Positions 873-46,274 of a DNA stretch of 63,764 bases are shown here, piece by piece. This stretch comes from Mustelus asterias. Lineage: Eukaryota. The notes under the pieces are model-generated. The model was not told where the DNA came from and did no database searches. It worked only from the letters and a program-made list of their open reading frames with translations. Location of the stretch: the NCBI RefSeq assembly GCF_964213995.1, contig NW_027590160.1, forward strand, positions 248,001 through 311,764, in the 5' to 3' direction. Both the position numbers and the translations under genes were made by a program. Position 1 is the stretch's first letter, and each line of letters opens with the position of its first letter.

Positions 873-881
873 TCACTTGAT
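873..881 (-). CDS. IGHM: IgM TM2 exon coding part (Ile-Lys-stop)
   Basis: tctttcttttacAG|ATC AAG TGA gives cytoplasmic tail K-I-K, equivalent to mammalian KVK. Confidence 0.9.
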   Translation of the reverse strand: MK

Positions 882-1017: not shown

Positions 1018-1145
1018 CTTCACCAGAGTGACCGCAGTGCTGTAGAAAATGCTCAGGAAGAACAGGACAATGAATGTGGAAGCCGTTGTCCAGATGTTAC
1101 TGTTATCATCCTCATTGTCTTCAATCCAGATGCGGTCGGTGGAGT
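1018..1145 (-). CDS. IGHM: IgM transmembrane exon TM1
   Basis: 128-nt exon (acceptor ctAG 1146-1147, donor GTGAG). (D)STDRIWIEDNEDDNSNIWTTASTFIVLFFLSIFYSTAVTLVK shows the conserved antigen-receptor TM pattern. Not in the ORF track. Confidence 0.95.
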
Positions 1146-1719
1146 CTAGGGGACGGAGACCAGGATATGAAATTAGATTACTTTGTTTATCCAGGTAATC
1201 TTATTGTTATTTTTCTTTTCCCCGTTCTCCTTTTTAAACTGTTCATTTATTCTTGAACTTAATTTTCAATGTATACCTACTCTTACGCTCAGGACACTCA
1301 GTAACCGATCTCCGTAACTATTTTCACACCTGATCTTTATTGACATTCCTTGGACAGTCCATGTCAAAAAGCACTGAAGATGTTTTCTCGAAAATCAGTT
1401 GATTTTTTAACAATTCGGAACTATCCCTCATTGAAGAGTATTATCACTGATATCGAGGAACGTTCACTGATCAATGATTGTTTTCACAGATGGTTACTGA
1501 TCTGTAAACTGTGAATGTTGTTGTTTAAGAGTTGGGATGTAATTTCCGATCTGTGCTTCTTTATGGTGGAAATGTTTAGTCGATCGTGAGCTTAATTCAG
1601 TTTCTCAGCGTGTTTATCTGTTCATTGTACATTGGGATAATAAATCTGTGGATATCTCCATTAAAAAGTCACGTTTAAATTTTACTTTCATCATTTGCCT
1701 ACCGTTTGTATTGAAGATT

Positions 1720-2755
1720 TTGCATTTGTGTGCGTGTGCATGAGCATCTCGTGCTCTGCATTAATCTTTGGCTCTGAGTTAATATGTGATTATGAGTGTT
1801 AATGTGCGCGTACATTTGCCTGTGATTGTTGATTTGTGTAGTTGTGTGTCTGCATCTGTGCGCATATTTTATTCTTTTGTCATTGTGTGTATATGACTCT
1901 ATTATTGTGTGAAGTCTATGAATATATATTAATGCCATTCTTAATGCGTGCACATGTGTTTATGCCTATTGCTCTGTGTTAATTTCTGTCACTCTAATAA
2001 TGTTTCTTTCCCTTTCTGTGGAGTTGCCGGCGTTGGACTGGGGTCGGCACAGTAAGTAGTCTCACAGCACCAGGTTAAAGTCCAACAGGTTTATTTGGTT
2101 GCACGAGCTTTCGGAGCGTTGTCCCTTCATCAGGTGACTACTTACTGTTTCCCTTTCTGTGTGCGTCTGTTTCTCCATGTGTCTGTGTGCACGCCTGTTA
2201 ACATGTCAGTGTATGTATACACGTGTTGACATTCTTTATAACGGTGCGTTGATGTATATTTGTGTTTCGATGTGTAGTAATGTGTGCTATGGTGTTCTGT
2301 TCTATGAGCATGTTAATGTTTGCGTCTACATGTTTGTGTGTAAATGTTTTGCTGTCTGTTCTTCTGTATGCAGTCTGGTGATTTGTTTATATGTATTTCC
2401 ATATATGTTTGTGAATGTGTATAACGTTGTGTGTCTTTATATCTATATTCCTATCAGCGTGAACGTGTGCTAATATATGTATTTATTTGAGTCTAAGTAT
2501 GTGCTTGTGTATTTATGTGGGTCTGCATGCGTGTGTATCTGTCTGTATTGTGTCTATGCATGTATGTGTTTGTGTTTGGGTCTGTACCTACTCGCGTATG
2601 GGCATGTGTATGTACTTGTGTGTTTCATGTGTACATGTGTGCGTTTGTACATATTTGATTATGTGTGTGTATGTTGTTGTTTTAGTGTCTGTTTGTCCAA
2701 GAGCGCGTGTCTATGTGTTCGTATGTGTGTGTGTGTGTGTATGTGTCCGTCTGTA

Positions 2756-2788
<33 letters not shown>

Positions 2789-3280
2789 ATGGGTGTGTCC
2801 CTATGTATATTTGTGTACGGATGTGTTTGGGTATGGGTGTATTTTTGTGTGGGTGTATTTGTGTAAGTGTGTATTTCTGTTTGTGCATGTTTTGCCCATG
2901 AGTGCATTTGTGTGTGCATTCTTGTTTCTCTGCATGTGTGTTCGTCTGTGCAAGTATTGAGTGTACCTATGGTGTGTGAAAGTGTATCTGTTGTGTATTT
3001 GTGTGTTTCTGTGTCTGTATTTGAATGTGCCTGTCCCTATTTCTGTATATGTATGTGTGTGGGGGTATGTGTATGCGTTTGTGTGTGTATATTTACATGT
3101 GTCTTTCTGTATTTGTGTGCATATGTGTGAGTATGTGTATTTGTGTGTGTAGTTGTGCATTTGTGTCGATGTGTGTGTGTGTGTGTATGTGTGTGAGTGT
3201 GAGTGTGTGTGTGTGCGCGCTTATGTGTGTATTTATAATTGTGACAGTTTTGTGGAGTATTGTCAGTGTGTGTATTTTTT
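1720..3280. repeat. Long imperfect (TG)n low-complexity tract in the CH4-TM1 intron
   Basis: Continuous TG/TA-rich degenerate dinucleotide sequence; source of spurious Cys/Val and His/Thr ORFs. Confidence 0.9.
2017..2140 (-). mobile_element. Penelope-like element terminal fragment
   Basis: Matches the ggcgttggactgggg...aagtccaacaggtttatttgg terminus of the Penelope copy at 40939-43045. Confidence 0.7.
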
Positions 3281-4374: not shown

Positions 4375-4766
4375 TCATTGACATGAATTAACGGTGTCCA
4401 TCAGTGCAAGGGAAATGTTCACAAAACTGGGTTTACCGCTGGATTTGTCAACTGTTCTGTTGATGATCTTCAAGGGGATGGCTTCATGTCCCACCACACA
4501 GGAGTAAGAAGCACCGCTGGACCATTCCTCTGCTGCAATGGATAACAGGCTGTACATGAAGAAGGAGCTATTCCCGCTCTCCGCGACCACCTCGGTGTTC
4601 TTATAGTTCCCAGGATTCACCGGCTTGTCGTTGACGGTCCACTTGACGAAGATCTCTCGAGGGGAGAAACGTCTCACTAAGCAGCTGAGGGAGACGAATC
4701 TCTGGGCGGAGACTTCTTCTGCCGAGGGCAGGAGGACAGAGACGGACGGTTCCCGCGGATTTGGAT
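4375..4766 (-). CDS. IGHM: IgM heavy chain constant exon CH4 plus secretory tailpiece
   Basis: Acceptor ctgcAG at 4767-4768. [43 protein letters not shown]...[23 protein letters not shown]|[20 protein letters not shown]. The tailpiece has an N-I-S sequon and penultimate Cys. Internal donor G|GTAAA at 4437/4436 serves the membrane form. Confidence 0.95.
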
Positions 4767-5267: not shown

Positions 5268-5576
5268 CTGTTTCCTTGTGGATGGATTTTCTTAAAGGAG
5301 TCGGCAGATCCTGATGGCTCACCACGCAGTCAAACACAGCCGCACTCAGCCAGGCTTGTGTCGAGACGTTTAAGTTGCTGACCACGCTGTCAGGATCCGC
5401 TCCTGGCTTTTCGGCAATCTCTGATTTCAAATACTTCCTGTCTCGGATCCAGGACACATTGACTCCATAGGGAGCATGAGAAATGATGCAGGTTAAGGTC
5501 ACGGTCGCCTCCAATAAGACCTGTTCTATTGGCGGGGGCTGTATCGTCACTGTGGTATCAGGGCACTGGGGAGTAT
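5268..5576 (-). CDS. IGHM: IgM heavy chain constant exon CH3
   Basis: 309-nt exon, acceptor cacAG, donor [48 protein letters not shown]...[22 protein letters not shown]. Confidence 0.95.
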
Positions 5577-6330: not shown

Positions 6331-6493
6331 ACAAAAATTGATGTTGTGATGAAGTTCTGAATGGGGCACTGTCCCAATGCAGCAAACTACATGACAATAA
6401 CTTAGAAGTTGTTCTATGCTTTGTATTAACTTTAATAGATCCCTAATTTCGATTAACAGCGGAATAATTTTTTTCTCGGTTTGAGTCTCTTAC

Positions 6494-6805
6494 CCAGAGA
6501 TCCGCTGATGTTCTGACTCTGAGTGAATCCTTGATGAGTGACCTGGCAGGTGTAGACCGCTTTGCTGAACCATTCCTGAGCGGAGACTGTCAACCGACTG
6601 CTGGCCGAGAATTTCCCGTTCACTTCACAGGCGGGAGAGGTGACAATTCCTGAATCCATGGGTTGTCCATTCTTCAGCCACTTTACCGTCATTGACTTTG
6701 GCTGGAAATCGATGATTGAACAGACGATGGTTGCAAATTTTCTGCTGGTGATTTCTTCACTGGAACTCACGGTGAGGATAACGGTTGGGGGGAGAACGCG
6801 TGGGC
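6494..6805 (-). CDS. IGHM: IgM heavy chain constant exon CH2
   Basis: 312-nt exon with AG/GT ends. (C)[46 protein letters not shown]...[16 protein letters not shown]; splices in frame with CH1 (T|GC = Cys). Confidence 0.95.
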
Positions 6806-6934
6806 CTTCAACAAACAAATGTTCAGACGTTACTTGAAGATTCAATTGACATCAATTAAATTTAGTTATTTTATTTTAGCACCATAGCTGCCGATTTGAG
6901 AATTATATCCATGGTTTGGTTGAATTGGCAGGGA

Positions 6935-7630
6935 AATGGCGAATGGAATTCAACCGTCAAAAGTGCCACACAATGCATTTGGGGAGGGAAAAAAAAGCAA
7001 GGCAATAAACTGGAATGTTAAAAGGGATTGAGGAAATGCAAGACCTTAGAGTGCATGTCCACAGGTCCTTGTAGATGGTAGGGCAGCTGGAAAAGTTGAC
7101 CAAGAAAGCATATCGGATTAGTTCCTCTATTATTGTGAGATATTGAATACAAAAACAGTGATGCAATGATGGAGCTGCATAAAACCTAGTTAGGCCACGT
7201 TTGGAGTTTGCTGTACAGTTCTGGTCACCACGTTGCAGGAATAACGTAATGACTCTGGAGAGAGATGAGGTTTACAAGAATGTTGCCAGGGACTGAAAAT
7301 TGCCGCCATGAGGCGAGATTGGATAGACAGGGTTTGTTCTCCTTAGGAAAAGAGGAGGCTGAGGCGTGACATAATTGTGGTTCACAGAATTATAAGGGAC
7401 ATAGGCTGAAATAATTCATTCCCCAAGTGGAGGGCTCAATTACCAGGGAGCATGGTCATTTAAAAGGTATCTGGGTCTGCATCTCAAGTGCTTTAACCTG
7501 CAATGCTACAGAGCAAGGGCTGGAAAATAGGCTTAACTTGTCTGGCTAGTTTATTTGTTCTCCCTTTTGGCCAGCACAGACATGATGGGTTAAATGGCCT
7601 CATTCTGCACAGTAACATTTCTATTGTTCT
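6935..7630 (+). mobile_element. Decayed CR1-type LINE 3' fragment in the CH1-CH2 intron
   Basis: Similar to the CR1 RT C-terminus copies elsewhere (aaatggcgaatggaattcaa, cagttctggtcacca). Confidence 0.75.
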
Positions 7631-7778
7631 TTGATTCTGAGCAACGTTTCAGTCAGTAGGCACTTACCTGGATTTTGCATCATTCATTTTTTTCAGAATG
7701 CTACAGATCAGTTATAACTAAGGCCTTATACAGTTCAATCGGCGAGTTCCTGTCTTGCCCAAGTTCCACAACACTTAC

Positions 7779-8078
7779 ATTGCATTCCAATGCTCTTGAC
7801 TGAGCCGCTGTGTCGAACCTCACAGTTGATTTTGCTGCACTCTCCCACTGACTGGGTGATGGTTAACTGGCTGCTCAGGGTATAGGTTCCCTTCGCGTTT
7901 CTCACTGACGGGTAAGTCTTAAATCCAGAGGTGATCAGCTGCCCATTTTTCTTCCAGGTCAGTTTGGAGACATCTGGAGAGTAGTCCATCGCCAAGCAGC
8001 CGTAGGTGATGGAGCCATCGGAGTTGTGTTGCTGACAGGAAGAACCGAGGATGTAGAGAGTGGGCGGAGACGGTGTCA
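7779..8078 (-). CDS. IGHM: IgM heavy chain constant exon CH1
   Basis: 300-nt phase 1-1 exon, acceptor ttcccAG (8079-8080), donor GTAAGT (from 7778). Translation [45 protein letters not shown]...[17 protein letters not shown] is a C1-set domain matching shark Cmu1. Confidence 0.95.
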
Positions 8079-8609
8079 CTGGGAAAGAATAGTCGATTAA
8101 ATAAGTTAGACTCTTACCTGCATTTATTAATTAATCAAACATATTTATACAAGTATGTTTCTATATTAGGTATAGCTCTTGGGGCTAAAGGGATCAGTGG
8201 ATATGGGTAGTAGGCGGGGTCAGGATATTGATGAGCCGTGATCAAAGTGAATGGTAGAGCAGGGTCAAAAGGCCGAATGGCCTCCTCCTGCTTCTATTTT
8301 TTATGTTTCAACGTCACAATTTGACTAGAATAATGAACTTAAGTTAATATTTCCCGATTAAGACCTACGCACACCTTTGAGCTTCTGTTACTCCTATCAT
8401 TTGGGAATCGCCATCTTTGTAGAAACTCACATCACTGTCTCCACCTCTATCAGATTGGAAAGACAAAAAACATTTTGATGTCATCGTAATGACATACCAT
8501 TCATTGGATTAACAGAGAAGAGTAAAGATTTTCTCCATTATTTCAAGCACTACCTATTTCTCAAACGACAGCACTTTGTGATGAATAAGTTGTCTCTTCA
8601 TTCATATCA

Positions 8610-8732
8610 TCCACTCACCTGATGAAAGAGCTCCAAAAGTTCGCAATTCCAAATAAGCCTGTTGTACTTTAACCTGGTGTTGTGAGACTCGTTACAGTGC
8701 CCACCCCAGCCTAACGCCGGCATCTCCACATT
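8610..8732 (+). mobile_element. Penelope-like terminal fragment
   Basis: ccactcacctgatgaa...aaataagcctgttg...ggcatctccacat terminus shared with 42910-43045. Confidence 0.7.
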
Positions 8733-9058
8733 GTAATTTTTGGATATTGCCTGTGTTCAAACTGACTGAATCCCCTTCCTCGCTCCAACTCACTGCCTCT
8801 CACTCCATAAAACGAAGATCAGTGACTTTCCTTCAGAAATACCTTCGGAATGAATACTTACTGAATGACCAGGAAACTCTGAATGTGATTACAAATTCAA
8901 ATAATTGCAACATTGACTAATTGAAGGGCCATACATTAATAGCAAGAGTTGGCCATTCGGACCCTGACGTCACCTCCGTTGTTCACTGAGATTACAGATG
9001 ATCTGGTTGTGGTGCTCGCTCTATTTTGCACCTCCTCACTCCGCCCGTCGATCACCCA

Positions 9059-9740
9059 CTCTCTGCACATTTTCCCCGCCTCTCTGCCCTTTCCTCTGGC
9101 TCTCTGCCATTCCCTGTGGCTCATTTCCCCTTACACCCGGCTCTCTGCGCTTCCACCTGGCTCTCTACACTTCCCTCCAGCTCTGTGCCCTCTCCCCCGG
9201 CTCTCTGCCCTTTCCCTCAGCTCCCTACCGTTTCCCCCAGCTCTCCGCCCTCTGTCCCTGCTCACTATTCTCTTTCCCCGTTCCCCCGGCTCTCTGCCCT
9301 TCCCCCCTGACTCTCTGTCTTTCCCCCTGACTCTCTGCCCTTTCCCCAGGGCTCTTTTGCACTTTTCGTCGGCTCTCGGTCCTTTCCCCGGCCTCCCTGC
9401 CCTTTATCCTGGCTCTCTCCTCTTTCCCTGATCTCTCTGCCATTTCCTCCATCTCGCTGCCTTTTCTCCTGTTTCTCTGCCCTTTCACCTGGCTCCCTGC
9501 CCTTTCCATTGGCGCTCTTTCCCATTTCTCCTGGCTCTCTGCCCTTTCTCCTGGCTCTCTGCCCTTTCCCCCGGCTCTCGGCCCTTTCCCCAGACTCTGT
9601 GCCCTCCCCCCCCCCCCCCCCCCCCCAGCTCTCTGCCCTTTACCACGCCTCCTGTTCTCCCCGGCTCTTTGCCATTGTCCTTGGCCCTGAGCCCCCAGGG
9701 ATTCCCTCCAGCTCTCCACATTCCCAGGGCAGCTCCCACA
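9059..9740. repeat. About 20-bp imperfect tandem repeat (CTCTCTGCCCTTTCCCCCGG)n, G-rich on the IgM sense strand
   Basis: Clear 20-nt periodicity over about 680 bp (about 30+ units), with a poly-C run at 9606-9626. Confidence 0.9.
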
Positions 9741-9894
9741 TTTGAACACCAAACTGCCGCTTGAGATCTTTCTTCTCTCTCGTTGCAGACCTCCACACAC
9801 AGGTTTAGCGAGTGTGAGTGAGAGAATGTGAGTGCGTGAGGGTGAGTGAGTGAATGCGAGTGAGTAAGTGGGGGGGGGGGGGGGGCGGGGGGAT

Positions 9895-10203
9895 GGTGGC
9901 ACGGTGGCACAGTGATTAGCGCTGCTGCCTCAGAGTTGGATTCCCGACTTGGGTCACTGTCTGTGTGGAGTTTGCAAGTTCCCCCCATGTCTATTTGGGT
10001 TTCATTCGGGTGCTCCTGTTTCCTCCCAAAGTCCAAATATGTGCGGGTTCGGTGGATTAGCCGTGCTAAATTGCCCCTTAGTGTCAGGGTGACTAGTTAG
10101 GGTAAATACATGTGGTTATGGGGATCGGGATTGCTGTTGGTGCAGACTCGATGGGCTGAATGGCCTCCTTCTGCACTGTAGGATCCTATGATTCTATTCT
10201 ATG
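9895..10203 (+). mobile_element. HE1/V-SINE
   Basis: ggtggcacggtggcacagtg head, V-domain ttgggtcactgtctgtgtggagtttgca, tail ctatgattcta. Confidence 0.85.
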
Positions 10204-10224
10204 ATGTCAAGGACAGACACTCTG

Positions 10225-12150
10225 ACGTATGTGAGATGGAAAGTGTGTGAGAGGGTGTTTGTGTGTGTGTGTGTGAGAGAGTGAATGTGTGGGAGGGTGC
10301 CTGTGTGTGATAGACTACGTTTGCACGTGTGTAAGACAGTGGGCTGTGCGTGCAAGAGGGGAGAGTGTGTGTGCGAGAAAGGGTGTGTGAGATAATGTGT
10401 GTGTGTGAGAGAGCATGTGTTTGAAGAGTTATTCTTTGTGTGTGATAGTGTGTCTCACCTTGAAAGTGTGTGTGTGGAGGGGCGGGGAGAATGTGTGTGG
10501 GGAGTCTGTATGAGAGAGTACTTCTGTGTGTGATTGAGTGTGTGTTTATGTGAAAAGAAGTGTGTCTATATGAGATACAGGGTGTCTGTGGAAGAGAGTG
10601 TGCGTGTGCTTGAGAAGGAGGGTCTGTGTGTGGGAGAGAGTGTTGTGTTCATGTGAAAGACAGTGTGTGCGAGAGGGAGTGCCTATTGGAAAGCAAAATA
10701 GTAGGTTCATGAGTGTGTGAAAGTGTGCATGGGATTGCGTGTGAGTGAGAAAGATGTGTACAATGTGTGTGGGAGATCGAAGCAATATGTTTGAGTGTGT
10801 GTGTGTGTGTGAGCGTGTGTGTCTGTGACAGAGAGAAAGAGTTTTTGTGTGTGAGAGAGAGACGTTGTGTGTGGTTTATGTGGGTGAGAGTGTGTCAGAC
10901 ACATGAGTGCTTTTGCACGTGTGTGAGACAGTGGTCTGTGTGTGCAAGAGGAGAGAGTGTGCGTGAGAGAAAGGATATGTGATATCGCGAATGTGTGTGT
11001 GTGAGAGAGAGAGTGTGTGTTTGAAGAGATATTCTTTATGTGTGTGAGTGTCTCTGTTCTTCAAAGTATGTGTGTGTGTGTGTGCGTGCGCGTGTGGAGG
11101 GGCGGGGAGAGTGTGTGAGCGAGAAAAAGTGTGAAAATTAGACAGAGTGGATGTGTGAGTGTGTGTGAGTGAAATAACTGTTGAGAGAAAACAGTGATAG
11201 GTGGAGTGTTTCAGAGAGATACATTGTGTATACATGTGTGTTCGTGTGTGAGAGACGGAGAGACTGTGGGCGTGTGAGAGAGAGAGTCTTTGTGAGAGAC
11301 AGTGTTTGAGAGCAAGATTGTGCGTATGTGAGATAATGTGTAAGGGAGTAAGCGTGTGAAAGAGAGAGAAATATGTGCGTGCGTGAGAGAATGCGTGTGG
11401 AAGTGTTCGTATGAGAGAGGGAGCATGTGAATGAGTGTGAGACGAAGTGAGAGTACGGGAATGTGGGAGGGATAGTGCATGTGTATTTGTGCGTGCGTGT
11501 GTGTGTGTGCGTGTGTGTGTGTGTGTTGTGTGTGTGTTGTGTGTGAGAGAGAGAGAATGTGTGCGCGAGACTGCTTATGTGAGAGACTGTGTCTGTGTGA
11601 AAGAGTGTGTGTTAGAAGGTGTGCATGTGTCTATCTTTGCGAGAGAGTGTTTGTGAGAAAGCAAGAATGTAGAGGTGTGAGATAGTGTGTGCAAGGGAGA
11701 TAGAAATATATGCATCTGTGTGTGTGTGTGTGAGAGAGAGAGATGTGTGTGCAAGAGGAATTGTGAGAGAGTGTGTGTGAATGAATGTGAGACAGCTTGA
11801 GCGTGTGTGACAGAGTGTGGGAGAGAGAGTGCATGTGCGAGAGTGTGACACTGTGCTTATGTGTGAGTGTGTGTCTGCGTGTAACAGAGAATGTGTGTGG
11901 CGGTGTGTGCGTGTGGGAGCTTTTGTGTATGGGGGTATGAGATACTGATTGAGAGAGCGAGAGGATGTATGTATTTGTTTTTGAGACAGTGTATGTAGAA
12001 CGTGAGAGAGAGAATTTGTATGGGTGTGAGAGAGAGATCGTATGAGAGAGAAAGTAAGTGTGAGTATGTATGTGTGTGTGTGAGAGAGAATATGAGAGTG
12101 TATATGTGCGTATTTATGTCTGTGAGAGCGTGTGATGTGTGTAAGTCTCT
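10225..12150. repeat. Long TG/GA low-complexity tract with internal duplications
   Basis: About 1.9 kb of degenerate (TG)n/(GA)n; blocks at about 10310-10500 and 10910-11110 are near-duplicates. Confidence 0.9.
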
Positions 12151-14756
12151 ATCTGGCTGATTCAGTCCGGAAAAGCACCCTCACTCCACACACACTCACC
12201 CAAACACATTGTAAATGGGAGTGACAAGTGAGCACAATACGGACCTCGGGCCAAGGGTTGGAAAAACATTTAAATCTTTCACAGGTCAGTCACAATTGAA
12301 TAATTTCCTCTTTCCGCAATGAGCGAAACTTGTAAAAACTCAAGAAATTTGACACAATCCAGAGCAAAGCCATCCACAAGATTACCCAACCCCTCATTCA
12401 CCCTATTCGCTCTCTCCATCACTAACAAGCAGTGACAGCAGTGTGTATTATATACAAGATGCACTGCAACAACTCACCAAGACTCCAGAGAAAACACTGT
12501 CCAAACCAGCTGCCTTTATATCCCAGCAGGACAAGGGCAGCAGCCACATATGAAGACTACCACCCGCAAGCTCCCCTCCAAGACAGACAACATCCTGACT
12601 TGAAACAATACCTCAGTTCCTTCACAGTCGCTGGGTGGGTCAAAATCCTGGAACATCCTGCCTAACAGCAACGGCGGATGCCTGCAGCATATGGACTGCA
12701 GTTTTTCAAGGATACTTCATATTAACACTTTCTCAGGTAGGATTAAAAATTCTGACCGAGCAAATGACTCTAAAATGTCTTCAGAAGATTAAAAATAGGA
12801 TGCAAATGAATTTGACCCTTCAACTGTCATACTAAACAGGTCAGGGACTGCTATAGTACGGAGCACAATATAGTAAATCTCACTTTGCATTTGCTCATCG
12901 AACATTCCCAAGACCGGTAAATCACTGGTTAAAAATCACTCAAATCTGCCTCTGCAGTCTGACGTTTCTGCTCTCTCTAACGGTCACAATATGCTTTGGG
13001 GATCTCATTTCTGAGACGCCGAGTCAAACGTCAAGTCAGACTGCCACATTTCTCACAGGTACAAGTTTATAAAGAAATAAATCAAATTTCACTCCCTGAA
13101 ATACAGCAGAAGGAACCAGAAGTTTTACAACCAGTCAGGCAGATTCCTGGTCCCAACACAGTGACCACGCGCACAGAAACAGAACAGACACAAACGGTGC
13201 AACAATCGAGTGCCCAGCAGATAGATCTGTTCAATCTGTCAATTTCATTCAAACTGTTGGATTCTAATTGATCAATGGCCAACTTACAACAACAGAAAAT
13301 TAATAACCTTTTTTAAATTAAACTGATATTCATTTCAAAACTCCTTTCGACTGTTAATTATTCCTGTTTCACTTCTCGAAAACTATGTAAAAATGTAACT
13401 TCGCCGAAAATGAGCAATCAAAAATAACAGATTCGGGACAGTTCAATGTCCCTAACAGAGATGCGGTGACACAGCAAGAAGTAACCAAATCAAGAAACAT
13501 TTAGATTGAAAATCATTACCTGATTAGATCTAATTTCTTAATTAAATGTAATCAACAAATTAATCAAAGCAAAACACTTTATCGAGTGAGCACAGCTGAG
13601 TAAAGTAATGTTTTGTTTCTGAATTCATTTCCGATACACGCCTGTACAATATTCAAGGTAGTTTGTTTTGAATTAATCAGCAGCAATATTATATTTTAAG
13701 TTATTGTTAGTTACTAGTTAGTTCTCCTGTCAGCTCATTTGTACTCTGTAATAAAATGAGTTTTCAATCATTCAAAATGTGCTTCTGCCTCCAACATTGT
13801 TAAATAATTAGGTTACAATTAAATCTTAGACAATGTTAAATATAATTTCAAATTACTGAACAGAAACATTCAGACATCTGCCATTCATTTACTTAAATCT
13901 AATCACATTGTAATATTTTACTTTTTCACTTTTACTACAAGTGTCTTATTATAACCTGCAAAAGTGTTAAAATTGCATACTGCTGAATATGTATAGACTG
14001 TAACGGCCTGGCAGTTTGAAATCAATAATACTGCTTCCTAGATTTAGTAATTTAGAACATCCATATAACTTAATTACTGAGCACATTGTTTAATTAAAGA
14101 AGATCTGAATTAAACCGTGCAAACACAAAGAGGACAATTGATTCAAATCCTCTGTAACACTAAAACATGATGCAGAATGTAAGTCCAGACTTTTTCTTCA
14201 TTATAATATTTAATAAGAATTAAACATAAGGTTCAGATAGAATCAATTCTTCTACTGTGTCATTTATTCTTCCCATAATTCTATCCTGTGTTCAGCAGTA
14301 ATGGGAGACATGATGTTATTATCAAGTGCAGAGATAAGAGTATTTTTATAGTATTTATAATAGTATAATATTTTTATTTAAATTAATCTTTTTGAATTTC
14401 AAGCATTAACTTGCCCATCTCTAGCCAGTTTCTGTTGACACTTTACTACAATTCAAACACAATTATGTGAACAATTGCTTGAGTGTCAGCGAATTCCACC
14501 TGTCAGAAAACTCTGTTCGCTCTGTCAAATTTATTCAAACTGTTTGATTCTAATTGATCTAAGGTCAAATTACAACTGCAAAAAAGTCAATAAAATATTT
14601 AAATTAACCTGATGTTAATTTCAAAATTCCCTTCGCCTTGTAACTATCTCTCCCTGTCTGTCTCAAATCATGAAAACTGGGCAAAAATGTATTTTTTCTG
14701 AAAATGAGCACCTCAAATATAACAGATTCAGGGTAGTGTAATGTCCCTAACAGAGA

Positions 14757-15097
14757 TAGAAAGATAGAAACCCTACAGTGCAGAAGAAGGCCATTCGGCC
14801 CATCGAGTCTGCACCGACCACAATCCCACCCAGGCCCTACCCCCACATATTTTACCCGCTAATCCCTCTAACCTACGCATCCCAGGACTCTAAGGGGCAA
14901 TTTTTTTAACCTGGCCAATCAACCTAACCCGCACATCTTTGGACTGTGGGAGGAAACCGGAGCACCCGGAGGAAACCCACGCAGACACGAGGAGAATGTG
15001 CAAACTCCACACAGACAGTGACCCGAGCCAGGAATCGAACCCGGGACCCTGGAGCTGTGAAGCAACAGTGCTAACCACTGTGCTACCGTGCCGCCCA
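14757..15097 (-). mobile_element. Near-consensus full-length HE1/V-SINE
   Basis: Reverse complement begins gggcggcacggtagcacagtggttagcactg, with B-box ggttcgattcc, V-domain and 3' tail. Confidence 0.9.
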
Positions 15098-15479: not shown

Positions 15480-15810
15480 CAGACAGACCTCACTGCGCAT
15501 GCGCAGTAATGACACCCACCGCTGCGGCCATTTTGCGTTGCCAAGGGAGACGGCCAGCGGCCATATTCCGTTGCCAAGGGAGACGGCAGCGACCATCTTG
15601 CGTTGCCAGGGGAGACGGCATCAATGCGGGCGGTGTCCCGCGCGCTGACCTGTGGGAGCATTCCCGTCCCGCACATGCGCACAGGCAGCCCCGCCCCCCT
15701 CGACAGACCCCCTGTTGTCCCGCCAACGAGCATGGGCCGGGCCGGAGTGGGCAAGAGGTGACACTGGGAGGAGCAGCCCCCGGGAGCGTTACAGCGACGC
15801 CTGGTGGCCA
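15480..15810 (-). promoter_or_regulatory. CpG-island promoter-like element (NRF1, GC box, 3x YY1+X-box repeat)
   Basis: Palindrome ACTGCGCATGCGCAGT (15492-15507). Three 32-33-bp units at 15524-15620, each with AANATGG(C/T)CGC on - and GTTGCC-N3-GGAGAC. GC box GCCCCGCCCC at 15688-15697. High CpG density. Confidence 0.65.
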
Positions 15811-16671
15811 GGAAGGGCAATAGCAGCAGCACAGTCTCTGCCCAAAGGCTTCCCCAGTTCAGCTGCTCAGAGACACTGGGAATGTCTTCAAGTGGAAACT
15901 TCAGCTTCTCACATTCACCCCCTGTGTTCAGTCATTGTTTCCTAGACAACCTCTGTAGTCACATCACAAACAACTTGTTCACATTGAAGGCCATGGCAAT
16001 CTGGACCATTCGGCTTCAAAGCCATTGAGCTTTAAAATTTCAATTGAAATGTTGGAGATGAGAGTTTATCGATGCAAGTCATGTTGCATGTGGAACGCTC
16101 ATGATGCCACAATTAGAGCAGTACAGACATCTCACAGGGTTGTGTGACTGGAGGAGATGTCAGAGACGGGCTGGTTAAATATAGAGGGACAGGGTCTGAA
16201 GCTAAGTTTTGGGTAAAAGATGGCAGTAATGTTGTGACATTAATTTAGCTTCAGATAGTTGCTGGGGAGGGGGATAGAGAGGTTGGGGAGCGATGTTTGT
16301 ATTGGGGCAATCTCTCTCTCTCTCTCATCATGTATATATATGAATCCATCTCTCACTCTCTATCTCTCTTTACCCATTGTGTCCAGAGTCTTGTGAAGGC
16401 GCAGACCGGTGGCAGGTCATTACTGCCGAGGAGGACAGCCTTCAGCGCACTGGAGCTGCGTTGCTGCACGGATAGCTCGAGGCACCTCTGCCTCCGACAG
16501 CATCATCTTCCACACGTGTGTCTCTTCTGGACTTTGTGTGTGTCGTGTGTAACTGGTGGGGACTGTACAATCCAACTGGAACATGGTATGGTGGGAAGGT
16601 CTTATGAGCAAAGGCTGAGGGACTTGAGGCTGTTTTCGTTAGAGAGAAGAAGGTTAAGAGGTGAGTTCTCA

Positions 16672-18287
16672 TCATAAACCAGCTGGTCGCCTCCATGCTG
16701 TGGTACCGGCTGGTCCCTTTGACCCCTCCCTCTGGCTTTGTCGCCGATATCCAGAGAACCCTCGTGCGGTTCTTCTGGGGCAATCGACTGCACTGGGTCC
16801 CTGCTGCGGTTCTGCATCTCCCGCTTGAGGAGGGCGGACAAGGTCTGGTGTGCCTCCGCACTCAGATAGCGACCTTCCGCCTCCAGGCCCTGCAGAGGTA
16901 CCTTTACGTTGAGCCCCCTCCACAGTGGTGTGCCATGGCGACGTATTTCTTCCGCCAGTGGCACGGCCTCAATTATGACGTGCAGCTCCTGCATATCGAA
17001 CTGGGGCGTGCTTCGACCGCCCTGCAGGAGTTGCCCGTCTTTTACCAGGACCTCCTCACTGTCTGGAACAAGGTCGCCTCGTGACGCAGCTCTCCCCCGT
17101 CAGGAGTAGCGGCTCTCGTGCGAGAGCCGCTGCTCAGGAATCCGCTCCTCCAGCCGTATAACTTCAGGTGGCTGGCGGAGAGGAGGGCTGTGGACGCCGG
17201 GGTGACCAGAATCGGGGACGTGCTCGATGGCGGAGGGGCGGGCTGGATGAGTCCCCGCATGCTGGCTGAGCGCGCGGGGACGACCGTCCGGCGCGTGACC
17301 AAAGCCATCCTAGACCTTAGGACGGTCGTGCTCGGCCCCGAAACTGCACGCAAACTTGAGACGGCGCAGGCGTGCGGTGGGATCCCGCCCGAGCGTTCCC
17401 CTGTTCGGGCGGAATTCCACATTGGCCCAAAGCCTCAGCCCCCTCCCCTGGGTGAGGTGCCCCACAGCCTGAGCCGCCTTGCGGAAATGTCCTCCGTGCC
17501 TTTTTCTACCGCGCGGAGGCGTTTCCTGTGCGGGCTGCTGCTGCACACCCTCCACTACCGCCTCCTCGCCTGTCGCCCGGATACACCTTGGCGGGCCTTG
17601 TTGCCGCCGGGCGGCGGAGGTCCCCGCTGGAGGTCCCTCTATGGAGGGATCTTCCCCAATTACGTCGGGGACCTGGGGTGGAGGGTGATGCATGCAGCAG
17701 TGCCGCACAACCGTAGGATTCACTGGTTCACGGGCTCCGAAGACTGCCCTTTCTGTGGCCTTGTGGAGTCCGTGGACCATGTCTATGTTGTGTGTCTTAG
17801 GCTGCACTCCCTTTATGTTTTCCTGAAGAACCTTTTATTGATGTTCTGTTTGCACTTCAGTCCCACACTCCTGATCTACGGACACCCGGTGCAGAGAGGG
17901 GAGGGTCGGGATGGCGACCTCCTCGTGAACCTGCTCCTGGGCCTGGCGAAACGCGCCATTTACCGGTCCAGGCAGCGGGCGATCGAGGGGGCCGTCCATC
18001 CTGACTGTCTTCCCCTCTACCGCGGCTACGTTCGCAGCCAGGTGTCCCTGGAGAGGGAGCATGCGGTGTCCACGGGCGAGGTTGACTCTTTCCGCGCCCG
18101 CTGGGCACCGCAGGGGTTGGGGTGCGTTCCCGACCCTAATAATTACATTATGATTTGATGTTTTTAAGTTTCCTTTGTACTTTGATTTCTGTTCGGGCTG
18201 TTCCCCCTCTTTTTGGGGAGCTGCCCCTTTTACTTTGTCCTGATTTAATCTGAGTTTGTTTACTTGGTTTGGTTTGACCTAAAAAGA
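16672..18287 (+). mobile_element. Tx1-clade non-LTR retrotransposon, 5'-truncated ORF2 C-terminus plus 3' UTR
   Basis: ORFs 16695-17084 and 17118-18158 (one stop between) contain LPLEEGGQGL and the zf-RVT motif CPFCGLVESVDHVYVVC; T-rich 3' UTR. Confidence 0.85.
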
Positions 18288-19257: not shown

Positions 19258-19330
19258 GTTTCTGTGGTGCTGTGGTTATCACGTTTACCTCACACGCGAA
19301 AAGTCAACGGTTCGAAACCGGCCAGAAGTA
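19258..19330 (+). pseudogene. tRNA-Val(CAC)-like pseudogene
   Basis: gtttctgtggtgctgtggttatcacgtttacctcacacgcgaaaagtcaacggttcgaaaccgg; several stem-breaking changes versus vertebrate tRNA-Val. Confidence 0.7.
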
Positions 19331-20297
19331 CTGTTGGATTTATCTCGCTGAGCGTGAGCTAAATCTGCAGAATTTAAGTTCGTTGCTCCATATTATGTGA
19401 ATCTCCATGTTACGTCAGCTAAAATGCTTTTCGGAAAATCAGAATTGCTGTATTTTAGGATGCAAAAGCAGGAAATAAATGTATGTACTGCTTATACACA
19501 TATTCGCAACTCGTTCAGTCCACAATAGAATTTAATGGGTTCAGAGATGCAGACTAACATAGTTAATTAACATCTGAAACACGTCTCTTAGTATTATGTG
19601 CTCATAAAGACAGACACAAGTGAAACTGTAACTGGACTAGAGGAAATGGCGCACATTTCCCAGCAGCATCTTTTTAAAATTGTTCTTCATGATAAAGAAA
19701 TGGGAAAAACCACTCAGACAGATGAGGAAATCGAGAATCAGTGGGGACCTCCTAGAGATGAACGAGATTTCGGCGCCAGAATGTTTCACACGCGGAATAA
19801 AGAGGCATCAAGTATAACGAACAGATCATTCTTAATTCTCTTCCCTTGAAATGAATTTGATTTTGTTTGAAAGATGAGTGTGGTCATTCTCAGATAAGCA
19901 CCATGGGATGTGTATTACCCAGTGACTCGATTTCTTTTGTTTGTTAGTCATGTTTGCAATTGAATGTTGTATATTTCAGAGAGGTTCAATTCAGAATGAG
20001 GGCATCTGTGTTAAATAAAAGTATTGAAATTAAATGTTGAATAACTACAAATGCAGGATATAACTGGTTGAACGTATTCTACGAAGATGAGATGATTGAG
20101 CAGAAATCATTGCTCCCTTTGACATTTGACAGACGAACGCTTTTTAAGTTTTGAAGTTCAAGATAAATTGAGATATCAGGTTGAAAGTAACGGATTTGTT
20201 CTTGTATTGGTCCTTCAATCTTACCGTCTGAACCGGCAGCAACACAGTGGAGTGAAATATTGTAGTCAAGCCAATTAGCGAGTCGGTGCTGTCTCTT

Positions 20298-20370
20298 GTT
20301 CCTGTAACATAGTGGTTATCACGTTCGCCTAACACGCGAAAGGTCCCCGATCTGAAAACGGGCAGAAACA
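20298..20370 (+). pseudogene. tRNA-Val(AAC)-like pseudogene
   Basis: tagtggttatcacgttcgcctaacacgcgaaaggtcccc is intact, but the B-box/T-loop is mutated (gatctgaaaa). Confidence 0.7.
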
Positions 20371-21570
20371 TTCATTAGCTTTTCTCATGAAGGGTGAGTG
20401 AAATCTGAATGATTTCAGTTGGTTGCTGAACATTATCCGAATCTCGATGTTAAAGCCACGTTATCTTTGCTCTGACCTCTGCCTCAAATGCTTTCTGTAA
20501 AATAAGAAATGCTGATTTTTTTTGACGCATTGAGAGGAAAGAAACGTTTCGTTTTGACACTCTGCACATGTTAGCATTTCGTTCGGTCTCCAGTAGAATT
20601 TAATGGGTTTATAGGCGCAGACTAACATAGTTAATTACCATCTGAAACATGTCTAATAGTAGTGTGTGCTCAAAAAGACAGACACAAGTGATACTGTAAG
20701 TGAACTACAGGAAATAGCACACATTTCCCAGAAGAATCTTTTTTAAATCAAAATAAATAAATAACAAAGAATTAGGAATAACCACTCAGACAGATGAGGA
20801 AATCGAGACTCACTGCGGATTTACGGGACTTTCCTACAGATGGCCGGAATTTATGCACCTGAATGTTTCACACTCATAATAACAAGCCTCAAGTATAACT
20901 AACAGATAATTCTTCTATCTCTTCCATTTAAATATAGATGACTTTGTTTAAAAACTGACTGTGGTGAATCTCAAAGAAGCACGATGGGATTTGTATTACC
21001 CGGTGACTCGATTCCATCTGTTGGTCAGTCATGTTTGCAATTCAATGATGTTCAATTTCAGAGCTATTCAATTCATAATGAAGACGCATGTGTTAAATAA
21101 TGTATTGATATTAAATATTAGAAACATAGATAGAAACATAGAAAACTACAGCACAAAACAGGCCCTTCGGCCCCACAAGTTGTGCCGAACATATCCCTAC
21201 CTTTTAGGCCTACCTATAACCCTCCATCCCATTAAGTCCCATATACTCATCCAGGAGTCTCTTAAAAGACCCAAACAAAATACCCTATTTAATAACGAAA
21301 AAATACTGAGTACAATTGGTTGGAATTATTCGAAGGACGATGAGAATGATGCATTAATGATTGAGCAGAAATCATTGCTTCCTTAGCCATTTGCCGGGCG
21401 AACGTTTTTTAATTTTGAAGGACAAGATAAGTTGCGATATCAGGTAGAAAGTAACGGATGTCTTCTTGGATTAAGTGACATGGACTCTCAACCGAAACAT
21501 CAGAACCTGCAGCATCACAGTGGAGCTGAATATTGTAATCAGGCCATTTGACGACGCTGTGCTGTCCTTT

Positions 21571-21643
21571 GTTTCTGTAATGTCGTGGTTATCAATTTCG
21601 CTCAACACGCGAAATGGCGCCGCTTCGATGCCAGGTAGAAACA
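21571..21643 (+). pseudogene. Decayed tRNA-Val-like pseudogene
   Basis: Third copy in the same tandem unit context; heavily mutated. Confidence 0.6.
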
Positions 21644-23205
21644 TTCGTTAAGCTTTCTCCTGTAGGGCGAGGGAAGTCTGTCTGATTTCAGTTTGTTGCT
21701 GAACATTATCCGTAATCTCAGTGTTACAGCCATGTTATCTTTGCTCTGACATCGGCCTCAAATGCTTCCCCCAAAATCACAAATGCTGACGCTCCTATTT
21801 TGGCACCGTTCACAGGTTAGCATCTCGTTCAGTCTGCAACACAATTTAATGGGTTTATAGGTGCAGACTAACATAGTTAATCACCATCTGAAACATGTCT
21901 AACAGTATTGTGTGCTCAAAAGACGGACACAAGTGAAACTGTAACTGACGTAGAGGAAATGGCACACATTGCCCAGAAGCATCTTTTTATTTGCATATAT
22001 ATTTATTTTTGCAATCTTTTAAGTTAAGAGCTACAACGAAAGGTGAGGAATTTTCTTGTGCAATTCTTTTCTAATAACAAGTAACGAATGCGATAATTGG
22101 GTCGCAGCATTTTAACACGAGTGCTGAGTGTTCAGACATAGTTTCTCTGCTTCCTCCTGCACCATCTGACCGCGCCATTGCTCTGTGCCGGGCTTGGGTT
22201 TGGCAATTACCCCACCCCTTCCCTCTTCACACCATTTGTTCCAACAGGCAAATATTCGGGCAGCTTCATTGCACGTTGCTGAAGGTGCAAAAGAAGAACG
22301 AAAATTAAATTCAACGAGAGAAACTGAGAGAGGAAACAGGACTGAAATTGAGGAGCAAAGGGAGATGGTACAGACACAAATAATAAAAGGAAGAATGAAT
22401 ATTATAGAGGAAACAATCATGTGGTGATTCTCAAAAAATGTCAGCCGTTTTGTTTAAGTTTTAGTTTGTTTGTTTTGTGATGCATATTCCCTAATTATGG
22501 GCGATTATGGCCAGATTAGCATTACTCGTCCATCGCTATCTTGACCCACCATCGTGTAAATGGTGACGGTGCTGTTCTGGAGATATTTTCAGGATTTTGA
22601 GTGAGAGACAAGAGGAACGGCGCTTGTGCCGGAGTTAGAATTGAATGTGACTTATGGAATCGCTGGATAACATAGGCAGGAAGTAGGGCCTTTGGGAAAG
22701 TGTGTCTGTGCTTCCAGTTTGCAGCGCTGTACAATCAAGTCAACTACATCTCCATTGCCTATGGAGCTGCACTTTTTCATTTTCAAACATATATTGAATC
22801 ACATTTTATTTAATCTTCCTCTACCACGCTTCTGGGCAGTGTTTTCAAGATGATCACAACTCGATTTGAAAATTATGGCAAATCCAAGCCCCCCTCCAGA
22901 AATTTTTGATCAATTACCTATAATTCGTAAGCCCTCATCGGCATTCCTGATGACAGTGGAAATAATTTCCTAATATCTACATCCAGAGATAAACTCTCAT
23001 AAATCTGGTCACTTCCATGACAATTCCTCTTAACAGCCTTCTTTCCAAGGAAATCAATTCAGTTTATCTGCTCACTCTGCGACACCTTGGCACAATTGTG
23101 ACAGATAATAAGAATGGGTATCCTGAATGAGCAATTTTACTCTACAAGTGTCGCACGGTGGTCGATGCCATCAAATAACTCTCCTGTTATGTCGTGTTTT
23201 GTCAG

Positions 23206-23540
23206 GTTTCTTGTGTGGGCTCGTGTGGTTGTGAAGCATTGTGATCCTCAATCCGCAGATATAGAGGGCGCTGTCTTTCGTCTCCACTGCAGAAATTGCA
23301 AAGGGAAAATCTGATATTGACTGAAACGACGAGCATCGAATTTTCTTTTGAAAAACTCGGCATCACAGCGTCTGAAGTTATCCGATACAATATAAAATAG
23401 AGTGGCTGTTTCGGTTACAGCATGTACCAATAGCGACCCGGTTCAACAGAACTGGAGTTATGATTACAGTTCAATTCCAGATTAGCTCCCGCAGTAGCCT
23501 TCAATTCATGTTGCCCCTATGTGACCGAACTCTCTTAGAT
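23206..23540 (-). pseudogene. TCR alpha/delta-type V pseudogene with RSS
   Basis: Minus strand reads ESSVT*GQHELKATAGANLELNCNHNSSSVEPGRYWYML*PKQPLYFILY, then after frameshifts ...ISAVETKDSALYICGLR. Heptamer CACAATG (23237-23243), 22-nt spacer, ACAAGAAAC (23206-23214). Confidence 0.8.
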
Positions 23541-27432: not shown

Positions 27433-27770
27433 NNNNNNNNNNNNNNNNNNNNNNNNNNNNNNNNNNNNNNNNNNNNNNNNNNNNNNNNNNNNNNNNNNNN
27501 NNNNNNNNNNNNNNNNNNNNNNNNNNNNNNNNNNNNNNNNNNNNNNNNNNNNNNNNNNNNNNNNNNNNNNNNNNNNNNNNNNNNNNNNNNNNNNNNNNNN
27601 NNNNNNNNNNNNNNNNNNNNNNNNNNNNNNNNNNNNNNNNNNNNNNNNNNNNNNNNNNNNNNNNNNNNNNNNNNNNNNNNNNNNNNNNNNNNNNNNNNNN
27701 NNNNNNNNNNNNNNNNNNNNNNNNNNNNNNNNNNNNNNNNNNNNNNNNNNNNNNNNNNNNNNNNNNNNNN
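27433..27770. other. Assembly gap (338 N)
   Basis: Run of N. Confidence 1.
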
Positions 27771-28307: not shown

Positions 28308-29236
28308 TCAAGCGAGGTCGTTTTTCTGTTTATGTTGCTGCTTAAAGCAACCAGTGACCATGGTGACTGGCCACATCAGCACCTTCATCATCTCCGCTCG
28401 AAACTTGGTCTGGGCCACTGCATAGATGAAGACGTTGTTGCAGGAACTGAGCAGCTGGAGCATGTTGGTCGTCTCCTGAATGATATACTGTGAGTCATTG
28501 AAATCGAGGCTGTTGAAGTAGCCCTCACCTGTAATCTGCACGCAGAGAAAATGTCCGACATAAGGAGCCCACAAGAGGAGGAAGCTGAGCGAGATGGCAA
28601 AGAGCAGGACAATGGATCGCTTACGGTTGGCCATCTCCGGGTCGTCCTGACTGTCGGAGCCCCGGAGCCTCCTGCGGGCTCTGCTGGCCGCTAAGATGTG
28701 TTTTATTGTGAGGGCGTTGAGCAGCAGAATGAGTATGAATGGGAGGAAAGGGGTTAGGATGTGATCCAACCAGTCAAAGGCCTGCCAGAAGGGCGAGGTA
28801 CTGAAGCTGGCTTTGATATCACAGAACCAGGCCACCCCGTCCCGGATGAACAAGGGCTGGAAGGTGAAGTAGAAAGGAATATTATTGATGCAGCTCAGGG
28901 CACAGACTATTCCTATAACTAGCAATGTTGTTTTCTCCGTGCAGTATCTTGTCTTCAGGCTCTGACAGCTGATGGCCACAAAACGGTCGATGGTAAAGCC
29001 CACTGTCAGCCAGACTGATCCATCCAGTGTGACAAAAGCCAGAATCATGGTGAGAGCACATGCAGGGTGGGTGAAAAGCACACTTTCACCAAAATAGATG
29101 CGCCCAGTCCGATTCAGGATGATGCCGGTGATGATGACAAGGAAATCGGTCACCGCTATTGCCACCAGATAGTAGGTGATACACCGGGAGAGTCCACACC
29201 GTCCACGGCATAAGGTTATGATCGCCACAAAATTCG
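28308..29236 (-). CDS. GPR139-like class A GPCR, exon 2
   Basis: Acceptor ctcacAG (29237-29238). (A)NFVAIITLCRGRCGLSRCITYYLVAIAVTD...SVWLTVGFTIDRFVAISC...LLWAPY...SSCNNVFIYA; 7TM pattern with a DRF motif, no stops. Confidence 0.9.
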
Positions 29237-30698
29237 CTGTGAGAGATCATGAAACAGTGATATCACTGAGCGGCTACCCAAACATTAGCAATTTACTCAT
29301 GTAATATATTACTGTATTCTTTCTGATCCGTTTCTTTGTTACCTCCAGGCTCCTAAATTTTCCAAAACCTTTCATAATTGTTCAATATCAAACACGGGAT
29401 TAAAAATTACTAACACATGAGACACTGCTACGGGTCCCACTCCAAACTGTGCTTTCTGGTCACTGAGTCAGTCCCCAGAGCTCGCTATCGAATTTAAACT
29501 CATGCAGATCAAGAAGAAATCAGATATTGCTCTTGGGGCTAACGGGATCAAGGGGTATGGGGGTAGACGGGATTAGGATATTGAATTTGATGATCAGCCA
29601 TGACAATAATGAATGGCGGGGCAGGCTCACAGGGCCGAATGGTCTGCTGCTGCTTCTATTTTCTAAGTTTCTATGTTAGAACATTTGCTGCCAATGGTTT
29701 GAATCACAGTGAGATCCAACAATCCATCAATCCCATTCACGTGATTTCCATTGATTCTCCTTCTGGCACCGTCTCCCTTTCAATCGTCTCATTGTTTCAA
29801 TTTTCTAACACCTCCACTGCCTCGCCATCCCGATGCTGTGATATCCTGGGTAAGATGGGTATAGAGGGATATGGACCAAATGTGGGCAATTGGGATTAGC
29901 TTAGGGCTTTTAAAACAAAGAGCGGCATGGACAAGTTGGGCCGAAGGGCATGTTTTGATGCTGTAAACGTCTATGACTCTATGACTCGTGTCTGAGATCG
30001 CAGCATACCTCCATTTCTAGCATCATGTGTTTGCCCTGATTTAGTCCCTACATCAATGGTGGTTATGTATTAACCATGTATTATGTACCGTTAATTGAAA
30101 TACTATGTTGACAATGAGGACTGCTCAGTGGGGGGAACTCACTACACGACAATTATTACATACTTCCAGCGATCAGACTGTTAATTCGTGTATCACTGAA
30201 TGTATTTTATATCACAATTCATTAATCTGATTGTTCTGTGGTAACTCATTTTGCAATATTGCAATAAGATCAGTGCACGAACATATAAGTTACAACATTA
30301 TGATATACTAATAATCCGCATAACACTAGAAGCAGTAGATTGCATTTTAAAAAAAAGAAAACCCAAATTTCAACAATATGACAAATCAATGCTCATACAA
30401 CATTAATTGTGTTACAATCCATGTGTCAGCGATCTAATAAACGGTATTTATATGAATGTGCAGCATAATGAATAAAATACTATCTTATAATGCCCCGTAA
30501 AACAAGTTGAATTAATGCACCAAAATTCACCACACCAAGATATAATACCACACAAGGCAGCTATAGATATGGGGATTCGGTTGAAGCCCCTCACAAGTAG
30601 GCAGGACTAAATATTGGGAAGCTAATGCTGATTCTGAAAAGAAAACAATCCTGCAAATTCTCAAAAGAAAAATAACGCTATTGGGATTCATTACTTAC

Positions 30699-34394: not shown

Positions 34395-34867
34395 ATGGAA
34401 ATCTTCTTTGTTTTCACCCTGTGTGTCTGTGTACCCCGTGAGTACCGACCAAACTTACCCACATTGTGTGGATTGAATATAAAACTGCCCCAGTCCACCC
34501 CAATTACAGACACTGTCTGGGGTTTTAGTCCCGTTGTGTGGTTCGGCTCTGATGGTCCATTAAACTCTGTGTTTAATTTCCAGGGTCATTCAGTCAGTCA
34601 GTGACACAGAGCCCAGCAGCGGTGACCAGGAAGGAATATCAGTCTCTCACCGTCACCTGTGTTTTCTATGGCGGTTATTACTATTTGGAAAATGGTGATT
34701 TCTTCAGACAAACCCAGACTGGAACAGAGCGGGAGAAGATCACCAGCGGAGGGAGATTTGTTGTGTCGGTGAGTAAAGCAGAAGAGATATTTTCACTGGA
34801 AATTCGGGACTTGAGAGTTGAAGACACCGCCACCTATTACTGTGAAGCTCATTACAAATACGAAACA
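34395..34867 (+). CDS. IgNAR-like (NAR-TCR-type) V segment: leader exon 34395-34437 plus V exon 34584-34867
   Basis: Leader MEIFFVFTLCVCVP-c|GTGAGT, acceptor ttccAG. V reads QSVTQSPAAVTRKEYQSLTVTCVFYGGYYYLENGDFFRQTQTGTEREKITSGGRFVVSVSKAEEIFSLEIRDLRVEDTATYYCEAHYKYET. It is short, lacks the CDR2/C'-C'' region and has the NAR-like ISxGGR(F/Y) strand. Confidence 0.85.
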
Positions 34868-34905
34868 CACAGTGGTCGGCCTCGACTTCCCGCGGTACAA
34901 AAACT
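34868..34905 (+). other. Recombination signal sequence (two-turn, 22-nt spacer) of the NAR-like V
   Basis: CACAGTG + 22 nt + ACAAAAACT. Confidence 0.92.
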
Positions 34906-35179
34906 CTCACTGCAAAGTTTCACATAAACACATTAAAAATCGGACCTATTCTGTTCTGAAACACTCAGTTTCACCTCACATGCTCTGTTACATAGTCTCG
35001 TTTATAATGAGACGGGATTATTACAGTTTGCACTTTGAGTTTTATAAATACGGAGCGCGGGTGGTGATATCTTTTCCGGGATTGATGTTGTTGAATGGAG
35101 ATTGGGAATGACTGACCCCAGTTCCAACCCATCTCAAAATTTCGGGTCCTGTTCCCTCAGGTTCCCTCAGATGGTACCA

Positions 35180-46143: not shown

Positions 46144-46211
46144 GTTTCTGTAATTGTCATCACATTCGCTTCACACGCGAAAGGTCCCCTGTTCGAAACC
46201 GGGCAGATGCA
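46144..46211 (+). pseudogene. tRNA-Val-derived pseudogene
   Basis: cacacgcgaaaggtcccctgttcgaaaccgggcag; D-arm decayed. Confidence 0.6.
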
Positions 46212-46274
46212 TTATTAAACTTTCTCAGTTAGGTTGCGGAAAGTCTGCATGATTTCAATTTTTTATGGGCCAAA

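Follow-up and report, generated by a model that had tools for sequence, protein, structure and literature searches.

The window, the whole stretch of DNA analysed here, comprises 63,764 nucleotides (63.8 kb) of Mustelus asterias and carries an IgM constant gene (Cmu) on its minus strand, a G-rich tandem array about 1 kb 5′ of the first constant exon, and V genes of T-cell receptor (TCR) type further upstream. The features on which the argument draws, given with strand and support, are as follows.

873-881, minus strand: IgM TM2, of the same gene.
1018-1145, minus strand: IgM TM1 exon (tblastn to P0002 and P0016; splice context).
4375-4766, minus strand: IgM CH4 and secretory tail (95% amino acid identity to Triakis scyllium IgM; splice context).
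5268-5576, minus strand: IgM CH3 exon (tblastn with IgM proteins; splice context).
6494-6805, minus strand: IgM CH2 exon (88% amino acid identity to P0003; splice context).
7779-8078, minus strand: IgM CH1 exon, an open frame flanked by AG/GT splice sites (87% amino acid identity to Triakis scyllium IgM P0003; C1-set; splice context).
8079-9058, minus strand: spacer between array and CH1, with two short high-copy repeat fragments at about 8140-8370 and 8604-8731 (depth and loose ends; repeat families D15 and D20).
9059-9605, minus strand: core of a degenerate 20-bp minisatellite, G- and purine-rich on the IgM sense strand (Tandem Repeats Finder; 47% G; 35 runs of GGG or longer in 547 bp; G4Hunter mean 0.89).
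9606-9627, minus strand: poly-G run within the array (sequence; its sole short-loop canonical G4 match).
9628-9740, minus strand: looser 5′ array units (alignment to the unit consensus).
10200-12150, no strand assigned: extended, degenerate tract rich in TG/GA, immediately upstream of the array and with the opposite strand bias (GC skew +0.47 to +0.71 on the plus strand).
13157-13196, minus strand: J-type RSS-like site whose spacer is 24 nt long and, after it, a reading that weakly resembles a J (RSS scan; no JH match by tblastn, primer or profile).
23246-23534, minus strand: decayed V, judged by eye to be of TCR alpha/delta type; its weak profile hit (iE 1.7) coincides with an RSS at 23243, and its translation contains a frameshift and two stops.

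All IgM constant exons, CH1 to CH4, TM1 and TM2, are open and carry AG/GT splice sites. The closeness of CH4 to Triakis scyllium IgM points to a houndshark-like species. Comparison with related contigs gave 12 exon differences among the 40 entries listed of 631, seven non-synonymous and five synonymous, which is too selected a sample for calling the Cmu gene live or dead. Metagenome contigs scanned with CH1 gave no match. A "hypothetical protein" attributed to Aeromonas veronii (P0008, on a 742-bp contig) is 94% identical to shark IgM CH4 and is probably host contamination.

Tandem Repeats Finder identified a period-20 tandem array at 9059-9605 (26.5 copies, 69% matches, 6% indels), which alignment to the unit consensus extends with looser units from 9605 to about 9740, giving a total length of ∼0.7 kb (682 bp, 0.68 kb). 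The distance from the CH1 acceptor (8078, minus strand) to the array is 981 bp, and the 20-bp repeat about 1 kb 5′ of Cmu1 described in the sequence-only reading is thus real. A 20-mer searched with at most three mismatches matched 13 times, every time inside the array (0 in 100 shuffles), and a weight-matrix scan of the 63.8-kb window found four isolated unit matches outside the array and no second array. The units are 80% identical to the consensus on average and 0.66 to 0.68 identical to one another at any distance (0.67 for neighbours and for distant units), and no two of 29 units are identical. As neighbouring units are no more alike than distant ones and none is identical to another, the array appears to stem from one old expansion followed by decay. 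Its head-to-tail units are of the size found in minisatellites (VNTRs), a class marked by 10-60-bp tandem units, strand skew, CpG decay, and copy-number variants.

The strand bias claimed for the array, with G on the non-template strand, was confirmed: the sense strand holds 328 G in 682 nt (48% G) and is 80% purine, and the G4Hunter mean of 0.97 for the whole array is the maximum of the window (0.89 for the core, which excludes the poly-G run). Within the array the short-loop canonical G4 pattern is confined to the poly-G run, and three of the window's 21 long-loop matches fall in it. R-loop prediction, by a rule of our own, returned six stretches in the window, the longest of which (9706-8631, minus strand) begins in the array; the adjacent TG/GA tract gave a stretch nearly as long (11099-12088, plus strand). 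The array is therefore predicted to have a G-rich non-template strand capable of R-loop or G4 formation, as in S regions of the mammalian type, and it could form such structures if transcribed, perhaps only incidentally. A hairpin model of the Xenopus type was unsupported, the array strand folding no better than shuffles (z = -0.44, 20 shuffles). Two long degenerate TG/GA-rich tracts, at 10200-12150 and 1700-3250, lie in the IgM gene region, and both are G/T-rich on the antisense strand.

The six AGCT sites listed earlier (9179, 9219, 9239, 9627, 9710 and 9731) were exactly reproduced in the 682 bp. The accompanying statement that most units carry WRCY on both strands did not hold, as TGCC on the plus strand is present in 16 of 29 ungapped units, AGCC on the minus strand in 14, and both in seven; any WRCY on both strands is found in 12. 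AGCT density is 8.8/kb in the array versus 3.6/kb in the window, other windows reach nine AGCTs, and six or more were reached by 14 of 1000 dinucleotide shuffles. The sense-strand WRCY count of 21 exceeds all 1000 shuffles, yet lies at the 68th percentile of the window; the both-strand count of 47 (versus 35.9 ± 7.6) lies at the 95th percentile of 621 windows, others of which reach 53. WRC falls at the 19th and 15th percentiles of same-length windows on the two strands and WGCW (nine in 682 bp) at the 14th, both below the window median, and GGGGT has a count of zero on the sense strand. The high density of RGYW/AGCT hotspots that characterises S regions is not seen in the array.

The CpG at the unit junction reads CA in 10, CG in seven, TG in five and otherwise in seven of the 29 units. 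G>A changes are found at 11 of 29 CpG guanines versus 27 of 290 other guanines, and C>T changes in six of 29 CpG cytosines versus five of 58 elsewhere. Aligned unit junctions account for four of the AGCTs; of the other two, one falls in a shifted unit and one on the edge of the array. An AG-CCG junction that loses its CpG would become either AG-CTG, which creates AGCT, or AG-CCA, which does not, and the AGCTs of the array look like a by-product of CpG decay at this junction. Since decay that makes no AGCT is at least as common as decay that makes one, AGCT shows no sign of having been selected for; the bias of CA over TG (10 versus five) is not significant (p = 0.30) and indicates only a lack of AGCT excess.

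Contigs from four runs out of the 22 listed, two from organism A and one each from B and E, in four studies, were aligned to 6400-9860 at a likeness of at least 80%, a threshold below which arrays are invisible to the comparison. None of the listed runs was catalogued as RNA, which carries no information on expression. Run X8 was taken as genomic because it covered introns; owing to its shallow coverage six bins are empty, including three within the array, which we do not read as absence. The summed depth over five array bins relative to five exon bins was 0.53, 0.28, 0.34 and 0.71 in the four runs, and three repeat-element bins reached 106 to 12,384 times the exon depth; summed depth is no copy number and serves here for the gross contrast of array and repeats only. 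Array bin 9532-9647, which contains the poly-C run, was left out of the ratio, its depth being about five times that of exons in runs X1 and X10 and about twenty times in X8, a shallow run. Contigs join the CH1-side flank to the array in X1, X8 and X10 (organisms A, B and E); the edge away from CH1 is spanned in X1, X5 and X10. Within the array, joints skip 74-276 bases or go back 52 and 294 bases, with paralogues and alleles inseparable; array length thus varies among copies, as in minisatellites, the extra length in some related copies apparently amounting to as much as about 0.3 kb. Divergence, from 21/32 listed pieces that form a small part of about 43,900 and capped at 20% by the 80% filter, was 0.9-16% for pieces containing the array and 3.3-14% for intron pieces outside it in the same runs. 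In these listed pieces the array diverges like the neighbouring intron and is no better conserved.

At a likeness of at least 80% the array therefore lacks the large excess of copies over the host gene that a high-copy dispersed repeat would have, and it is linked to IgM clusters. The prospect raised at the outset, that the repeat is a common dispersed minisatellite with no enrichment at IgH, is not borne out, given this linkage in related sharks, with depth that is exon-like and not SINE-like and the same CH1-proximal flank beside the array. The three organisms compared are close relatives, and X1 could be of the source species. Duplication of whole clusters would give identical linkage for a passenger repeat.

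No VH or JH was found upstream in the window by tblastn with nine IgM proteins or with a profile of eight VH-JH regions, nor was a JH found when the window was scanned with a published JH primer. The 19 kb between the Cmu region and an assembly gap (27433-27770) holds no recognisable VH and no intact JH, and consequently the placement of this array copy in a working J-C intron cannot be shown. The RSS-like site at 13157-13196 is a possible JH remnant, not an established one. An octamer motif lies at 12800, ∼350 bp downstream of that site, where an intronic enhancer might presumably be expected. Just upstream of the RSS-like site, a 260-bp block is present in two copies (about 13220-13490 and 14500-14770), which agree at 208 of 258 aligned bases. 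At 15480-15800 lies a CpG-rich block (67% GC, CpG observed/expected 0.83, three 32-bp repeats); it contains motifs that we take to resemble Sp1, NRF1, YY1 and RFX sites, and could be a promoter firing towards Cmu.

The decayed V at 23246-23534 is the nearest V-like sequence upstream, not separated from Cmu by the assembly gap and sharing its orientation, and V-set genes lie further upstream at 34.6, 40.6, 44.7 and 59.4 kb. The V gene at 34577-34927 (plus strand) has an RSS, and its relatives in several sharks are gene models with two V, several of them named TCR alpha-like; it is probably a NAR-TCR V. The other TCR-type V genes are at 40.6 (plus), 44.7 (minus), 57.1 (plus, a fragment) and 59.4 kb (plus). 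IgH clusters linked to TCR alpha/delta, with TCR-type V exons in between, are described in the available part of a published account (PMC12227049). In a normal shark cluster, as given in the accessible text of PMC5192425, VH, two D and JH lie within about 2 kb; as no VDJ was found upstream, the Cmu copy of the window is probably an orphan, or misassembled.

Given its short length and its scarcity of the mutation signals that mark switch regions, the array is most likely a passenger repeat, and we hold with reasonable confidence that it is an old minisatellite carried along by IgM clusters. In an IgM cluster ancestral to those of the shark group, one 20-bp purine-rich unit of the intron that directly precedes Cmu1 would have been amplified in tandem, and the array then copied along with whole clusters. 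Later decay would have proceeded by point mutation, CpG deamination, and unequal length changes, with no sign of homogenisation; we infer this order of events, as well as the neutrality and lack of function of the array. The other strand-skewed, low-complexity tracts of the IgM gene, in the opposite orientation, also favour a passenger. Against it stand the window-top G4Hunter mean, a predicted R-loop stretch longer than any other on the sense strand, the sense-strand WRCY count above all shuffles with the both-strand count at the 95th percentile, and the retention of the array at a matching position in the three related organisms. An ordinary intronic GC-rich minisatellite resembles it in tandem units of 10-60 bp, strand skew, CpG decay, and copy-number variants; the array differs from one in being unusually degenerate (69% matches) and in having been multiplied through duplication of its host IgM clusters, not by its own spread.

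The sequence-only reading had instead proposed a candidate proto-S region, a proposal that survives in position, strand chemistry, and IgM-cluster linkage and fails on hotspot density and length. By position and strand chemistry only, the array is a proto-S candidate. In such a scheme, transcription from a VH promoter would lead to R-loops or G4, AID would deaminate the hotspots thus exposed, and the alike arrays in separate IgM clusters would provide the sites of breakage and joining for the inter-cluster switching that sharks perform, a scheme that we consider unlikely. It would fit a tract of tandem repeats 5′ of a CH gene that is common to paralogous IgM clusters, has a G-rich non-template strand, and attains the highest G4 and R-loop scores of the window. 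However, the six AGCT and nine WGCW sites in 682 bp would be explained by CpG decay, stable hairpins are absent, the units show no homogenisation, and neither a VH promoter nor an intact JH was found upstream of this copy. In nurse shark, switch junctions were reportedly mapped by Zhu et al. (2012) in the intron flanking JH, whereas the array lies at the Cmu end of the intron. Nurse shark inter-cluster switching does concern the same gene type, the IgM minicluster, and could be a process that makes use of such an array; in the parts available, reviews describe the exchange of VDJ between clusters as concurrent with hypermutation, yet state that shark Ig loci have no switch regions (PMC4279169, PMC4588147, PMC8201067).

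Known switch regions bear on the same proposal. Mouse S regions are given as 2-6.5 kb of RGYW-rich repeat in the accessible text of PMC4042586, and the array falls short of their length of several kb. Mammalian Smu and the array share a tandem repeat 5′ of Cmu1, a G-rich non-template strand, predicted R-loops or G4, and GAGCT (six in the array, sense strand). The array is about a fifth as long (0.7 kb versus 3.5 kb for mouse Smu, from the same part of PMC4042586), is without GGGGT, has a hotspot density near background, and lacks an upstream VDJ in the window's copy. With Xenopus Smu it shares a repeat upstream of Cmu that holds some AGCT. The sigma-delta region of mouse and human is likewise a repeat-like intronic tract 5′ of a constant region and not a classical S region, and indicates that a non-canonical switch-like tract can work in mammals; as far as the available portion of the report goes, it has mapped junctions and mutations and AGCT-type repeats in common with Smu (bioRxiv 10.1101/2021.06.28.450246), features that set it apart from the array as observed.

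A cis role independent of AID, through pausing of the polymerase, a splicing element (G-triplet or purine-rich) acting on the CH1 acceptor, or a series of transcription-factor sites, is in our estimate distinctly unlikely: the position of the array ∼1 kb from the CH1 acceptor is fixed in related genomes and it holds 35 runs of GGG or longer in 547 bp, but in the listed pieces its conservation is not above that of the nearby intron, and copy number varies among its copies.

We also considered that the array is one member of an old dispersed family whose other members fall below 80% likeness, its link to IgM reflecting cluster duplication of a single insertion. Units are ∼67% alike, so an independent array of similar age would drop below the 80% filter, and the bin at 9532-9647 is raised about five-fold in two runs. 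This reading is nevertheless improbable, as the 63.8-kb window holds no second array and the listed bridging contigs all continue into the flanks of the array locus; metagenome contigs, in which sharks are hardly represented, gave no exact two-unit match, a weak point on the same side. It is very improbable that the G-rich, R-loop-competent array 5′ of Cmu1 is a primitive switch site shared by shark IgM clusters, with the intact but VDJ-less Cmu among TCR alpha/delta V genes acting as a pure switch acceptor and as forerunner of the VDJ-less, S-region-preceded constant genes of tetrapods.

The first appearance of S regions is placed in amphibians, though VDJ switching between clusters already takes place in sharks. 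The G-rich array shared 5′ of shark Cmu1 offers a defined site for testing for a dedicated switching sequence, and if shark switching uses it, the origin of S regions would move back to the base of the jawed vertebrates; likelier on present evidence is a decaying, CpG-containing minisatellite that resembles a switch region by chance. In the literature on shark switching and IgM organisation, where subscription papers mostly fall outside the coverage, no title or abstract opening pointed to the array. The text or supplements of Zhu et al. (2012) may describe this intron already; the portions available of PMC2435157 and PMC5931798 contain nothing further on the array-bearing intron.

Elsewhere in the window, three tandem diverged blocks at 19270-21920, about 1.0-1.3 kb apart, each contain a tRNA-like 73-mer, and a fourth 73-mer lies at 46151-46223. 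ARAGORN reported tRNA-Glu, -Asn and -Tyr at 51.7-54.2 kb and did not call the tRNA-like 73-mers. GC-rich broken frames at 16665-18158 (plus strand) resemble, by eye, the 3′ part of a LINE ORF2, of which a 356-amino acid part has no Pfam hit. Among the V genes lies a rhodopsin-family GPCR reading frame of 312 amino acids (28308-29246, minus strand; Pfam 7tm_1).
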